This document shows positions 16,760-22,083 of a stretch of DNA of 64,000 nt, in pieces. A program made the translations under genes and the position numbers. The stretch lies in contig JANLTG010000053.1 in assembly GCA_031362805.1 (NCBI GenBank), positions 42,207-106,206 of the forward strand, given 5' to 3'. The stretch's first letter is position 1; each line of letters opens with the position of its first letter. The notes beneath the pieces were generated by a model. It worked only from the letters and a program-made list of their open reading frames with translations, did no database searches and was not told the DNA's origin. Source of the stretch: a bacterium (lineage in GTDB: Bacteria > Verrucomicrobiota > Verrucomicrobiia > Limisphaerales > RI-55).

Positions 16760-16805
16760 TGGTGGGCCCACTCGGATTTGAACCGAGGACCAAACGAATA
16801 TGAGT
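16760..16805 (-). tRNA. 3' half of a split tRNA(CAU) gene (anticodon loop to CCA), attL side
   Basis: The minus strand reads ACTCATATTCGTTTGGTCCTCGGTTCAAATCCGAGTGGGCCCACCA. This gives the anticodon-loop core, the 3' anticodon stem TCGTT, the variable loop, a perfect T arm CTCGG-TTCAAAT-CCGAG, the acceptor 3' strand TGGGCCC, discriminator A and CCA. No matching 5' half is adjacent. Confidence 0.85.
16797..16805. repeat. attL core (AATATGAGT)
   Basis: Exact 9-bp copy of the sequence at 22045-22053. On the minus strand it equals ACTCATATT, tRNA positions 31-39. Confidence 0.8.
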
Positions 16806-16900
16806 TGCGGAGACGGGGGTAGCAAGCAGTCGTCATCAGTCAGAACAAATTGCAATAACGCCAATTTTTTCAATGCTTTTTGAAGCTATCATGGGTTGCG

Positions 16901-18406
16901 ATGCAATCCGACGCGACCGCTCAGGACAAGAAAACCGGCCCAGAACCGGCCCAGAAGAATCGTGAAAGCGTTTCGCCAGAGAGGGCGAGATTCTCTGCGC
17001 GTTCGTTGCCCAAGACTCATGTAGGGTTCTGGCGTGCTCGTGTCGAGCGGCGGACTTACGACCACAACGGGCAGACCTTCGAGGTACCGGCGTATTCCGT
17101 GCCAATGGAGTTTGGCGGAATCAGGAAGCGACTGACGCTCGGTTCAGCGTTGAAGGAGGAGGCCGCCCTAAAGGCGCGCGACATTTATCTATCACTTGTC
17201 GCCAAAGGCTGGTCGGCGACCTTGGCCGAGCTTGCTCCGAAAACCGTTCACGAGTTCACACGAAGCGAACACGAGCCGACGGTCGGGGAATTTATCTCCG
17301 AGGTTGAGCGGACAGCTGGTTTGAAACCGAAAACCTTCCGACGATACGCGCAATCATTCAGGATGATGGCGGCCCAGATTCATGGTTTGAAAGCGGATGC
17401 GTCGCGATTTGATTACCATGGCGGAGGGTTGACGCGGTGGAGAGACAGGGTGAACGCCATACCTCTGACCGACGTTACTCCCGCATCCGTGGCGGACTGG
17501 AAAATCGGTTATCTCAAACGTGCGGGAAGTGATCCTCGCCGGAGACTTGAAGTGAATCGCGCTTTCAATGCGGCTCTGCGCAATTGCAAGAGCCTGTTCA
17601 GCGGGGACATCATCAACAAACCGAATTTCACAGTCAGAATTCCCAAGTTCATGGTGCCCGACGGCCAAAGCGGTAAAAAGGAGGCGTATTGGTTTCAAAC
17701 GGTTGCTTTCGAACCAGCAGGCTCAATGAAATTCCGCGCTCCAGCGGGTATCACCTATGAAGGGCTGCTCACGAATGCGCGCGACGAACTCCGCGCAGAG
17801 CACCCCGAATCCTACAAACTCCTGTTGATGTGTCTGTGCGCTGGCCTCCGAAGAGCCGAAGCGGATGTTTGCTTGTGGACTCAACTCAACCCGAAAGACA
17901 ATTCCATCCAGATCGAATCCAACGAGTTCATTGATCCGAAGCATGGTTCGGGCGGGACGGTATATTTTGATCCGTTGCTGATGCGTGAACTGCAAAGTTT
18001 CAAAGGGGACAATTCCGAGCGCTTCGTCGTCAATTCCCCACGGGCTTGGAAGCTCACCGTTTATGACCGCTATCGCTGCGAGCCACACTGGCGGAAGTTG
18101 CAGGCTTGGCTTGAGGGGAAAGGAATTCATGCGCGAAAAAAAGTTCACGAACTGAGAAAGATATTCGGTGATGCCATCGTCAAGCAGAACGGCATCTTCG
18201 CCGGCAGCGCGCAACTTCGACATGCCACCATCCAGATGACGGCCAGCCATTATACCGATCCGCGCCAGCGAGCAGCTCTCCCTGTTGGAAGCCTTTTCGC
18301 CGATGAAAGTCCCGCGTCCACGACGGACGCGGAGATTCAGCAGCCCGCATCGGCGGAGAAGACGCACAGGAAGCGTCAGACTTCGGGCGTCTCCATCAAA
18401 CCGTGA
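16901..18406 (+). CDS. int: Tyrosine recombinase / integrase
   Basis: Track ORF 16880..18406 (TTG); the first ATG is at 16901. Catalytic-type motifs are LCAGLRRAEA (Arg I), HELRKIFG (H-x-x-R) and LRHATIQMTASHY (His...Tyr nucleophile). It lies immediately inside the att core. Confidence 0.8.
   Translation: MQSDATAQDKKTGPEPAQKNRESVSPERARFSARSLPKTHVGFWRARVERRTYDHNGQTFEVPAYSVPMEFGGIRKRLTLGSALKEEAALKARDIYLSLVAKGWSATLAELAPKTVHEFTRSEHEPTVGEFISEVERTAGLKPKTFRRYAQSFRMMAAQIHGLKADASRFDYHGGGLTRWRDRVNAIPLTDVTPASVADWKIGYLKRAGSDPRRRLEVNRAFNAALRNCKSLFSGDIINKPNFTVRIPKFMVPDGQSGKKEAYWFQTVAFEPAGSMKFRAPAGITYEGLLTNARDELRAEHPESYKLLLMCLCAGLRRAEADVCLWTQLNPKDNSIQIESNEFIDPKHGSGGTVYFDPLLMRELQSFKGDNSERFVVNSPRAWKLTVYDRYRCEPHWRKLQAWLEGKGIHARKKVHELRKIFGDAIVKQNGIFAGSAQLRHATIQMTASHYTDPRQRAALPVGSLFADESPASTTDAEIQQPASAEKTHRKRQTSGVSIKP
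16936..16959 (+). repeat. Arm-type repeat doublet CGGCCCAGAAcCGGCCCAGAAGAA (left arm)
   Basis: A tandem CGGCCCAGAA decamer pair. A near-identical copy (CGGCCCAGAAaCGGCCCAGAAGAA) sits at 21966-21989 in the same orientation. Confidence 0.55.
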
Positions 18407-18462
18407 ATCGTGCTTCATCGCCGGCCGGGATGGAAGGTGGCTGCCCCAAAGCCGTGCGCCCG

Positions 18463-19320
18463 TCACACCTGAATACCAGCGAGGAAAACAGCCAGGCGGC
18501 GATGATGCTCGGTCATGCTGGCATCCATTCCGCACTCAGCAGCCAGTTCGCCAAATGGTTCGCTCCAACTGGACTGAGGCACTGGCATGGACGAGGGCAC
18601 AGAGTGAGTGCCGCGACGACGAAAGGTCGCCGTGATGTTCTCCGCGAGCCGGGTGCGGTCCATCGTTCCTGAATCGAACAGAAGGACCATATCCACCAAA
18701 TCCTTCACGCGCGTATTCGGGCGCCCGGTTCGCGGGAGCGTGTAGGCGTGCAGCTTCTCGGCGAACTGCTCCTCGCGCGATATGGCGGGCAGTTTGGCTC
18801 TTGCGATGCCAGCAAAGCCCAGCCAATCCTGACCTTCAAGAATCTCAAATGGTTCGCGCAGAACATCGCCGGCGCTGACATCGAGGTGAAATCCGGCAAA
18901 TCGCCGGCCCGCCATCTGCGCCTCGACGGGATACCTTGCGCCACCGTAAGGCGCGGCATCCAAATCCATCGTCGGCTCGCCGATGGTGAATTCAAACCCG
19001 TCTTTCAGGTCAACGGCCGCTGCACGTTCGAGCGAGGCACGCACCGCGGCGGCGTTCCACTCCTTGGCGCCATCAGGCAGCTGACGAATGGCCAGGTCAA
19101 CGTCGCGCGTGGTTCGCGCTTTCTGAATGCGAAGCTCCATCGCGTACCCACCCTTGAGCAGCCACGGCGCATCGGGTTCATGGAACAGGCGACACAGCAG
19201 CCGGTCGGATGCCGCCTGACGACGCATCCTTTGGATGTCGCCGCCTTCCCGGCGCACTGCGGCGAGAAGTCGGTCCTCCAAAGCGCGTCGGAGTGCCGAG
19301 GGCGTCTGGTAGCGGCTCAT
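18463..19320 (-). CDS. abiEii: AbiEii/AbiGii-family nucleotidyltransferase toxin (type IV TA / abortive infection)
   Basis: 285 aa. Nucleotidyltransferase motif LKGGYAMELRIQKARTTRDVDL. 4-nt ATGA overlap with the upstream AbiEi-like gene. Confidence 0.8.
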   Translation of the reverse strand: MSRYQTPSALRRALEDRLLAAVRREGGDIQRMRRQAASDRLLCRLFHEPDAPWLLKGGYAMELRIQKARTTRDVDLAIRQLPDGAKEWNAAAVRASLERAAAVDLKDGFEFTIGEPTMDLDAAPYGGARYPVEAQMAGRRFAGFHLDVSAGDVLREPFEILEGQDWLGFAGIARAKLPAISREEQFAEKLHAYTLPRTGRPNTRVKDLVDMVLLFDSGTMDRTRLAENITATFRRRGTHSVPSSMPVPQSSWSEPFGELAAECGMDASMTEHHRRLAVFLAGIQV

Positions 19321-19922
19321 GGGAATAGACTCATGACCAGTTCCCGCCGACCCGCACCTGCCTTGGCCGTCGAAATCTGACTTTCGGTAATCAGCCCGCG
19401 ACGACGAGCTTCTTTGGTGACTTCTCGGAGGTCATTAAGCGCATTGGGGTCGGCTTCCGCCAGATCGCACAGCGCCCGGAGTGGACGACAAACCGAGAGA
19501 CCTCGTAGCTGGGTGACCTCGCCCGGCATTAGCTGCGCGTAGTGCAGTGTCACCGCTTTGGGAAGCCGGCTGTTGCGGCGGAATGTCGGCGGTACGGTCA
19601 GGTGTATCTTTGCCGGGTTGAAATCGCCCAACTCGAACAGACTCAGGGCCGACTGATGCGAAACCGCCGCCGTCGGCTTTTCGCTCCGTCCACGCGACCA
19701 AAGCAGCCACACCATCATCTGCCCATCCTCGGGCGACGGCAGATGCGTCATACGGTAAATGCCGCGCCAGACCCGCGCCCAATTCCCGGCACGCACATGG
19801 TAGGGGTGGGTATTGTCCGCGTAGCCGGCCTCAATGGCCTGCTTCGTGGTGAAATACCCCTGCTGGTCCTGCGCAATGCTCATCAGGGCGGCAAACGGAT
19901 CGTTCTTCTTCGCCATGCACAC
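19317..19922 (-). CDS. abiEi: AbiEi-family antitoxin / transcriptional regulator
   Basis: 201 aa. N-terminal wHTH-like segment QGYFTTKQAIEAGYADNTHPYHVRAGNWARVWRGIYRM, typical of AbiEi. Translationally coupled to the AbiEii gene. Confidence 0.75.
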   Translation of the reverse strand: MCMAKKNDPFAALMSIAQDQQGYFTTKQAIEAGYADNTHPYHVRAGNWARVWRGIYRMTHLPSPEDGQMMVWLLWSRGRSEKPTAAVSHQSALSLFELGDFNPAKIHLTVPPTFRRNSRLPKAVTLHYAQLMPGEVTQLRGLSVCRPLRALCDLAEADPNALNDLREVTKEARRRGLITESQISTAKAGAGRRELVMSLFP

Positions 19923-21585: not shown

Positions 21586-21749
21586 TCTAATTCACCGGAT
21601 TCTGGCCTCCCCCTTCGCACTGCGACGAAATCGTCTGCCGTCAGGCAGAAGCTTTCACACGATTGCTTCCATTGCTCCATTTCAAATATGTAGCAGCTAC
21701 ACCAAAGAAGTCGCATAAGTCGCATTCTCGGCTCGTGAAACTTGATTAC

Positions 21750-22004
21750 ATGAGCGCGACAACAATTTCCGAATGTCAGACCCTTGACGTGAAAAGCAGC
21801 GCAACCGAACTCGGCGTTTGCGAAGAAACAGTGCGGCGCCTCGTTCGCCGGAAGGTGCTGCGGAAGCTGCCTGGGCTCCGGCGCATCCTGATTCTCAGGA
21901 CTGAGCTCAAAAGATACTTGGGAGCTGGAGAAGTAGAGTTGGCTACCAAAGCACTCTCAAAAAACGGCCCAGAAACGGCCCAGAAGAAAACAATGTTTGC
22001 GTAA
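21750..22004 (+). CDS. xis: Excisionase-like helix-turn-helix DNA-binding protein
   Basis: ATG at 21750 within track ORF 21663..22004. The segment SSATELGVCEETVRRLVRRKVLRKLPGLRRILILRTELKRYL resembles the excisionase/MerR-type HTH_17 family. It lies at the element end opposite the integrase. Confidence 0.6.
   Translation: MSATTISECQTLDVKSSATELGVCEETVRRLVRRKVLRKLPGLRRILILRTELKRYLGAGEVELATKALSKNGPETAQKKTMFA
21966..21989 (+). repeat. Arm-type repeat doublet CGGCCCAGAAaCGGCCCAGAAGAA (right arm)
   Basis: 23 of 24 nt identical to 16936-16959, in the same orientation, 56 bp inside the attR core. Confidence 0.55.
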
Positions 22005-22044
22005 GCAGCACATCGTTAAAATGTTAAGGTCTTTCAACCACGCC

Positions 22045-22053
22045 AATATGAGT
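22045..22053. repeat. attR core (AATATGAGT)
   Basis: Exact 9-bp copy of 16797-16805. Confidence 0.8.
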
Positions 22054-22083
22054 CGTCTGCTCTAACCGCTGAGCTATGGGCCC
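22045..22083 (-). tRNA. 5' half of the split tRNA(CAU) gene (acceptor to anticodon loop), attR side
   Basis: The minus strand reads GGGCCCA TA GCTC AGCGGTTA GAGC A GACGA CTCATAT T. The downstream sequence (TGGCGTGGTTGAAAGACC) cannot pair with the anticodon stem, and there is no T arm. Confidence 0.85.

Follow-up and report, generated by a model that had tools for sequence, protein, structure and literature searches.

A tRNA-Ile2-type gene split by a decayed integrative conjugative element that carries its own tRNA(CAU), a probable replacement, in Verrucomicrobiota

Genomic islands that use tRNA genes as attachment sites are understood through the Islander principle, by which a tDNA fragment in the attP of the element regenerates the target gene (Hudson, Lau and Williams 2015, PMC4383910). 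Under the Islander rules the regenerated tDNA must be co-oriented with its fragment, and 159 of 3,919 Islander islands have a 5' fragment of the target (PMC4383910). Another solution, tRNA-dependent lysogeny, has been described in actinobacteriophages (Guerrero-Bustamante and Hatfull, mBio 2024, PMC10865867): a tyrosine integrase acts on an attB in a tRNA gene, the common core of ~10 bp (about 8-17 bp) is too short to rebuild the tRNA, and lysogens survive only with a phage tRNA of matching isotype, as shown genetically. Fionnbharth targets tRNA-Lys-TTT with a 10-bp core, the Gordonia phages OneUp and Mollymur target tRNA-Ile2-CAT with cores of 10 and 9 bp, the Lactobacillus johnsonii prophage Lj965 is cited as a related case, and close phage relatives include members that rebuild the tRNA (PMC10865867). 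Could elements other than phages make use of this logic? Here we describe a 5,239-bp island, the remnant of an integrative conjugative element (ICE), that lies within a tRNA(CAU) gene in a 64-kb stretch of contig JANLTG010000053.1 (assembly GCA_031362805.1, Verrucomicrobiota); this whole stretch is referred to as the window. The decayed ICE has split a host tRNA-Ile2-type gene without repairing it, and we consider it probable that it supplies its own Ile2-type tRNA(CAU) as a replacement.

The tRNA(CAU) gene of the window is interrupted in its anticodon loop, and a 9-bp direct repeat stands at both edges of the island (Table 1). On the minus strand, the 5' half (22083 to 22045) reads GGGCCCATAGCTCAGCGGTTAGAGCAGACGACTCATATT and the 3' half (16805 to 16760) reads ACTCATATTCGTTTGGTCCTCGGTTCAAATCCGAGTGGGCCCACCA. 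A previous interpretation, made from the letters of the window without database searches (the sequence-only reading), had given the coordinates and sequences of both halves and a shared core of only 9 nt whose copies lie 5,239 nt apart; re-reading the sequence returned exactly these values. It had also predicted that excision in silico would restore a tRNA. Removal of 16806..22053 indeed yields a 76-nt tRNA(cat) with a complete cloverleaf in ARAGORN. The same program makes no tRNA call at the native junctions or at a simulated circular junction, in which no tRNA portion is found past the core, and neither half appears among the Rfam hits for 16000-23000 at E<=1. The view that an integrase-carrying island splits the gene in its anticodon loop, that the tRNA is rebuilt at neither junction, that attP has no usable 3' half and that tRNA finders miss both halves is therefore borne out. 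With such an attP, integration leaves two dead halves. The predicted attP joins 22044 to 16806 via one core (minus-strand reading ...CCGTCTCCGCAACTCATATTGGCGTGGTTGAAAG...), and the predicted empty attB reads ...GCAGACGACTCATA[A/T]TCGTTTGGTCC....

The 5,239-bp interval is an insertion. The DUF5009 gene to the left of the island has 96%-identical homologues on four metagenomic contigs (L107-L110; L numbers denote the loci compared), where an intact tRNA(CAT) alone separates it from the same ABC-transporter genes. These contigs match the in-silico excised window base for base, with flanks 91-94% identical in nucleotide sequence, and so provide the empty site in relatives for which the sequence-only reading had asked. 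The 3' half in the window is that of their intact tRNA, except at loop position 38, and the flank upstream of the 5' half is collinear with them. The same far junction is found in a sister island, L112 (GCA_031401075.1, JANNRB010000018.1, 1-750), where the same island end abuts the same tRNA in a more distant host; the L112 contig begins within the element tRNA and its far junction reads CTCATAATCGCGTGG, the window counterpart being CTCATATTGGCGTGG. Because L112 and the window are 97% identical in the island end and just 82% identical in the chromosomal flank, while closer relatives, at 91-94%, are empty, the element must have entered the same attB in two lineages.

Might the halves and the island simply have been misjoined during assembly or binning? 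The source is a metagenome-assembled genome, Logan unitigs break at 16797/16798, beside the core, and exact-protein look-ups with the window flanks led only to short Logan unitigs ending at the core, which hints at a branch in the assembly graph but is not decisive. The integrase-side junction was, however, recovered in Logan assemblies of two separate sequencing runs (L118, L119), the far junction is reproduced in the assembly of another species (L112), and both junctions are built exactly as in dozens of independent relatives. The unitig break, moreover, falls on a single-base polymorphism (A38/T38) and not on a mis-join: L105 and L118 share 16768-16797 and end just ahead of the base at loop position 38, which suggests that A38 and T38 variants are both present in SRR20217213. 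Given junctions that recur in L118, L119 and L112, an artefact is very unlikely. As to position 38 itself (16798 and 22046), both core copies of the window read ACTCATATT, and L107-L110 and L112 (533-539) read ACTCATAAT (A38). Since both window cores carry T38, precise excision would yield a tRNA with U38; a T at both junctions is unexpected from a simple crossover with one mismatched partner.

The two halves meet in the anticodon loop, the usual site of tRNA introns and split tRNAs, and one might ask whether they belong to a deliberately split tRNA, transcribed apart and joined in trans as in Nanoarchaeum, or flank a giant intron. We regard this as extremely improbable, as the insert holds an integrase and ICE genes on both strands, and the direct repeat, arm sites and empty sites mark site-specific integration. 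Trans-assembly of the Nanoarchaeum type was also tried as a candidate in its own right and rejected, the flanks showing no special complementarity (duplex of -24.2 kcal/mol versus a shuffle mean of -30.0, z = +1.3).

What, then, would decode AUA in this host? The codon is in use, though seldom: it makes up 5 of the 284 Ile codons of four chromosomal genes. ARAGORN finds a single tRNA in the whole window, a complete tRNA(CAT) that adjoins the excisionase-like gene inside the island, 460 bp from the 5'-half junction. Its distance and its orientation opposite to that of the split gene mark it as cargo rather than a regenerated target. The sequence-only reading overlooked this gene (21510-21585, plus strand), and its picture of a plain, uncompensated lesion is not supported, since a complete, high-scoring Ile2-like tRNA(CAU) sits close to the 5'-half junction. 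In a search of 5,426 E. coli genomes, the best full-length matches, for the reconstructed host tRNA as for that of the island, are CAT-anticodon genes that RefSeq annotates as tRNA-Ile. The host tRNA is 83-86% identical to E. coli tRNA-Ile2 and 70% to metT/metU; the corresponding values for the island tRNA are 79-84% and 74-75%. Both possess the pairs G3:C70, C4:G69 and C5:G68, and it is by these acceptor pairs that TilS of E. coli (4:69, 5:68) and of B. cenocepacia (3:70, 4:69) tells tRNA-Ile2 from tRNA-Met (PMC11947777). On the basis of similarity and acceptor pairs together we treat both as Ile2-type, the island tRNA with less certainty. In Rfam scans, sub-threshold matches to RF04354 (Plastid-ycf2 5'UTR, 28-39 bits) appear antisense to every tRNA(CAU), in the window at 21510-21583 (minus strand) and in L077, L089, L113, L114 and L116; they are a systematic false positive.

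The arrangement is not peculiar to the window. A genome scan with the integrase returned 39 related loci, with flanks taken to 10 kb, and in ~24 of the 39 a tRNA(CAU) 3' half on the strand opposite to int, starting from ACTCATAAT, abuts element DNA at a distance of a few hundred bp upstream of that gene, just as in the window. A canonical island also leaves a displaced 3' half, so that far junctions are needed to judge restoration. Seven far ends were found by way of excisionase-like homologues (L077, L112-L117). Six of them have the order seen in the window, namely a complete tRNA(CAT), the helix-turn-helix (HTH) gene, an arm repeat, the core and the host 5' half on the other strand; at the seventh, L077, the tRNA is located between the HTH gene and the junction. 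In another subfamily, with arms of the CTTGGCCAA variant, a complete tRNA(CAT) lies directly downstream of int (eight loci: L013, L016-19, L027, L031, L032). Both positions adjoin attP in the circular form. The homologous tRNAs carried by these elements (L013, L016-19, L027, L031, L032, L077, L112-L117) keep a perfect cloverleaf throughout, with three compensatory pair changes, and the element-borne tRNA thus appears to be a conserved part of the integration module in this family.

The far junctions form a graded series with regard to the part of attP that would restore the host gene. At one end stands L089, where an intact tRNA (RF00005, 69 bits) is followed by the same arm repeats and HTH gene. 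L113, L114 and L116 keep TCGCTTGGT and are degenerate thereafter (30-32 bits), and L051 is degenerate as well (25.8 bits). A recognisable but dead vestige, below reporting for RF00005, remains in L055, L081 and L099, and the window, L112 and L077 have little or nothing past the core and no RF00005 score. Such a series is what would be expected if, once a cognate tRNA is at hand, the restoring part of attP is no longer under selection, a possibility also considered in the phage study (PMC10865867).

Junctions of a related appearance were also sought in metagenomes, by a pattern scan for tRNA-Ile2 5' halves whose next base is not C, which gave 63 loci. In ~55 metagenomic contigs among L042-L104, the tRNA-Ile2 5' half is followed by non-tRNA DNA right after CTCATAAT. 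The anticodon loop of tRNA-Ile2 is a hot spot in which several element families integrate very often. Lone 5'-half junctions were considered as proof of non-restoration and dropped, as L052, L084, L085 and L089 show that many of them come from a different family, of reversed orientation, that rebuilds the tRNA at its other end; in these islands an integrase of ~402 aa adjoins the intact tRNA-Ile2, and the duplicated 5' half is found 2-9 kb upstream.

Does the island tRNA indeed substitute for the split gene? The proposal is well motivated by the sequence: the island tRNA has the anticodon and the acceptor-stem determinants of the split gene, in two subfamilies, to one side of the core or the other, it is found no more than a few hundred bp away from attP, and it has been kept in a remnant that is without nearly all conjugation genes. 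Decay of the attP 3' half goes along with presence of the tRNA, a pairing to be expected only where the element tRNA takes away the selection for a restored host gene. All this speaks against the alternative that the lesion is uncompensated or irrelevant, the host living on another chromosomal copy and the island tRNA having a different role, be it as elongator tRNA-Met, as a counter to anticodon nucleases or as a landing pad for further elements. Several observations nonetheless weigh against substitution, and some of them lend this alternative support. Our view of the genome is confined to the window, and a second chromosomal tRNA-Ile2 elsewhere would make the element tRNA unneeded. The Ile2 assignment depends on similarity and on acceptor rules taken from E. 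coli and Burkholderia. The margin by which the element tRNA resembles E. coli Ile2 more than elongator tRNA-Met is modest. Phage tRNAs have been discussed as anti-defence factors (PMC10865867), the island carries an Abi system, and the tRNA split in L028 and L033 is of the element type. No sigma-70-like promoter was detected upstream of the island tRNA, in a scan that is a weak and uninformative test; no relative has both junctions and the tRNA on one contig within the 10-kb flanks, full ICEs being larger; and L089, with the same excisionase-like gene and arm repeats, has an intact tRNA at the far junction, showing that non-restoration is not universal in the family. Taking both sides together, we hold the uncompensated or irrelevant lesion to be unlikely.

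For replacement by the island tRNA we propose the following mechanism. A lambda-like integrase, served by tandem arm-type repeats on both sides of the attP core, would have recombined attP, over a core of ~9 bp, with the chromosomal tRNA-Ile2-type (CAU) gene in its anticodon loop. In the circular form the integration module would run in the order tRNA, excisionase-like gene, attP, int. The host would have no other tRNA-Ile2 gene, and the element tRNA(CAU), which presumably is expressed, receives lysidine and is charged with isoleucine, would take over from the split gene in reading AUA. The logic would be that of tRNA-dependent lysogeny, used by a conjugative element. A broader version can be put forward tentatively, with somewhat less confidence than would make it likely: that a family of ICEs in Verrucomicrobiota routinely breaks the host tRNA-Ile2 gene and brings its own, so that hosts stay dependent on the element after its transfer genes are lost and remnants become fixed, a form of tRNA-based addiction.

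The integrase on which this mechanism would depend is divergent. Its own match to PF00589 is weak (Table 1), the domain is matched by 27 of 32 members of its family, and the R/K/HxxR/H/Y residues are invariant in the family alignment. A PDB sequence-profile search gave no match, and fold comparison alone placed the protein: an AlphaFold (AF2) model (pLDDT 69) has lambda Int, Tn1549 Int and XerA as best PDB matches, with low TM-scores of 0.2-0.4, and its N-terminal part is predicted to form a three-stranded sheet and a helix, like arm-binding domains. By its catalytic residues, the occurrence of PF00589 in the family and this predicted fold, we classify the integrase as a tyrosine recombinase of the lambda-like type. 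It has at least 237 homologues, the named ones being from Verrucomicrobiota, and no detectable match in 50,697 phage genomes. That it recombined attP with attB is suggested by the direct repeat and the empty sites.

Near-identical tandem repeats in the same orientation lie just inside both junctions. The motif, in the variants CTGGGCCAC and CTTGGCCAA, occurs once and at the same distance in 26 of the 39 related genome loci, and arm-type repeats are likewise seen at the far ends of L051, L055, L077, L081, L089, L099 and L112-L117. We infer that these repeats serve the integrase as arm-type sites, to either side of the attP core. Both fall within coding sequence (16925-16960 and 21955-21990), where they spell KKTGPEPAQKN at the N-terminus of the integrase and KNGPETAQKK at the C-terminus of the excisionase-like protein; the motif common to the two proteins probably reflects DNA sites and not protein function.

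The remaining island genes disclose its ancestry. Relatives of the element carry a TrwC relaxase, a type IV secretion system (T4SS) coupling protein, ParA and TrbI, which identifies the family as integrative conjugative elements. The relaxase remnant aligns to residues ~720-994 of open reading frames (ORFs) of 978-994 aa in L016 and L022 with 69-86% identity, and its full-length relative combines TrwC relaxase and AAA_30 helicase domains; the gene for the 126-aa protein adjoins the relaxase gene in all 14 related loci that contain it. Beyond the end of TrwC homology, 21257-21320 matches the 3' end of the large helicase gene found ahead of the tRNA in full ICEs (L113 3761-3823, L089 13888-13926). 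The window ORFs, examined with Pfam, include no T4SS genes and no intact relaxase, and thus not the transfer genes of an ICE of the MOBF type. With a relaxase tail only, no T4SS and complete relatives, the window element is an ICE remnant, and a comparison of sequences indicates that its middle, transfer genes included, has been lost and that both ends have been kept. Nor does the island have phage genes, as a temperate phage would.

The excisionase-like gene has 248 homologues, labelled as an excisionase family by JGI, and sits between the tRNA and the junction in L112-L117 as it does in the window. Its ORF and that of the integrase, at opposite element ends, are full length against their homologues. 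The window copy is probably immobile, and the two proteins may still be able to excise the remnant. The AbiEi and AbiEii genes overlap, as in an AbiE type IV toxin-antitoxin pair, and AbiE pairs are found in the related ICEs L006 and L016 as well. Outside the island and unrelated to it, the window contains a single plus-strand ORF of 3,974 aa (2858-14782) with many repeated units resembling parallel beta-helices and a C-terminal RHS/YD-repeat region, followed by a small protein that looks secreted.

Table 1. Features of the split tRNA gene and of the inserted element (window coordinates).
Feature	Position	Strand	Basis or remark
3' half of the chromosomal tRNA-Ile2-type (CAU) gene, displaced	16760..16805	-	core, 3' anticodon stem, variable loop, T arm, acceptor 3' strand, encoded CCA
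9-bp common core, integrase-side copy	16797..16805		plus strand AATATGAGT, tRNA strand ACTCATATT; second copy 22045-22053
Inserted element, 5,239 bp, internally deleted ICE remnant	16806..22044		absent from L107-L110; genes shared with full ICEs L002-L037, L113-L117
Tyrosine integrase, 501 aa, divergent lambda-like family	16901..18406	+	PF00589 E 0.0096 (weak)
Putative arm-type tandem repeat CTGGGCCGGTTCTGGGCCGG	16935..16953	-	130 nt inside integrase-side junction, overlaps 5' end of int
AbiEii nucleotidyltransferase toxin (type IV toxin-antitoxin / abortive infection)	18463..19320	-	Pfam PF08843 E 6.9e-29
AbiEi antitoxin / transcriptional regulator	19317..19916	-	Pfam PF13338 E 7.9e-8
Conserved 126-aa protein, no Pfam match	19927..20307	-	tblastn 50-73% identity in 14 related loci
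TrwC-type relaxase-helicase remnant, last ~273 codons	20234..21090	-	ORF 20234-21055, no Pfam match of its own
Internal deletion junction of the ICE	21090..21320		TrwC homology stops at ~21090; blastn of 20900-21760 against all loci
Complete element-borne tRNA(CAU), Ile2-like, presumed replacement	21510..21585	+	ARAGORN; Rfam RF00005 71.2 bits
HTH_17 excisionase-like (recombination directionality factor) gene	21753..22004	+	Pfam PF12728 E 2e-7; reads toward far junction
Putative arm-type tandem repeat CTGGGCCGTTTCTGGGCCGT	21964..21982	-	62 nt inside far junction; near-identical to, and in the same orientation as, CTGGGCCGGTTCTGGGCCGG
5' half of the chromosomal tRNA(CAU) gene	22045..22083	-	acceptor 5' strand, D arm, 5' anticodon stem, loop; contains core copy 22045-22053

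Within the wider family, several loci depart from the common arrangement. Integrases of the same family stand beside 3' halves of tRNA-Lys(CUU) (L008 ~230-300, L023 ~9620-9700) and of tRNA-Arg(UCG) (L014 ~8040-8110, L021 ~9630-9700), with the same cut in the loop; no cognate element tRNA is present within the available flanks of these four. In L028 (7891-7935) and L033 (9597-9642), the displaced 3' half beside int is 98% identical to the island tRNA of the window, from which it follows that the element-type tRNA is itself targeted in some genomes; when these two were examined for insertion into the tRNA of another ICE, the downstream DNA matched no other locus. The integrase-proximal end of L037 (9864-10050) is joined to a tRNA 5' half; its relative orientation is the reverse of that in every other locus and looks as though the attP core had been flipped with respect to int. 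In L004 (9383-9470, minus strand), the displaced 3' half is followed just downstream by a degenerate tRNA-like sequence with an Ile2-type T arm and acceptor end and an aberrant D region and anticodon arm, which may be the scar of an older integration. In L006, finally, the 3' half and arm repeat (4641-4820) are ~5 kb from the integrase match (10001-11497), so that something else lies between junction and int.

If the replacement of the host gene is real, the mechanism described for actinobacteriophages in 2024 reaches beyond phages to conjugative elements, in a phylum that is unrelated and mostly uncultured, and this would suggest that tRNA replacement is a general option for any integrase-borne element. 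The sole visible tRNA-Ile2 gene of the host would then be horizontally acquired, and a carried tRNA could lock decayed elements into genomes. Should the family-wide version also be true, the stages from a tRNA-restoring to a tRNA-replacing attP have been preserved. There is an annotation blind spot as well: the halves go uncalled by tRNA finders, and programs that map islands by tDNA regeneration, such as Islander, would miss these elements. Integrase, short core and cognate tRNA could together form a compact integration cassette for Verrucomicrobiota, of the same kind that Hatfull's group has proposed for mycobacteria.

How does the locus compare with known systems? The canonical tRNA islands of class A, with an anticodon-centred attP, share with it the tyrosine integrase, a crossover in the anticodon loop, a displaced 3' fragment and an int gene near attP. 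What sets them apart is the regenerating attP fragment, of which the window has none and several relatives have a decayed version. The configuration and orientation filters of Islander would reject the window, in which no intact tDNA abuts the island and the sole intact tRNA is on the opposite strand. Like the islands of reversed orientation that have a 5' fragment, the window shows a host 5' half followed by element DNA right after CTCATAAT; unlike it, L052, L084, L085 and L089 have the ~402-aa integrase, a duplicated 5' half and an intact tRNA at the other end, whereas the window element duplicates just 9 bp. The likeness to MOBF (TrwC-relaxase) ICEs comes from the relatives, which hold int, the excisionase-like gene, a TrwC relaxase-helicase, coupling protein, ParA and TrbI; the window copy differs in being reduced to the last 273 relaxase codons, with no transfer genes.

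The closest likeness is to tRNA-dependent lysogeny. In common are a tyrosine integrase with flanking arm-type sites, an attB inside a tRNA gene, a core of ~9 bp and a complete element tRNA of the same type, the isotype in the window being assigned by similarity only. Restoring relatives exist in both, so decay of the attP 3' half can be traced in either, and with Mollymur even the target, tRNA-Ile2-CAT, and the core length of 9 are the same. The carriers there are phages of Actinobacteria, whereas here we are dealing with a conjugative element of Verrucomicrobiota, as told by the TrwC relaxase, coupling protein and TrbI of its relatives; its integrase is unmatched in the phage genomes searched, the window copy is a deleted remnant, and dependence on the tRNA, demonstrated by genetics for the phages, is here presumed from sequence. 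A literature search, incomplete in its coverage, found no description of tRNA-replacing integration in ICEs. The window presents every sequence-level feature of tRNA-dependent lysogeny, and its configuration has precedent. The kind itself has already been described; what appears to be new in this case is the ICE, the phylum and the evolutionary intermediates.

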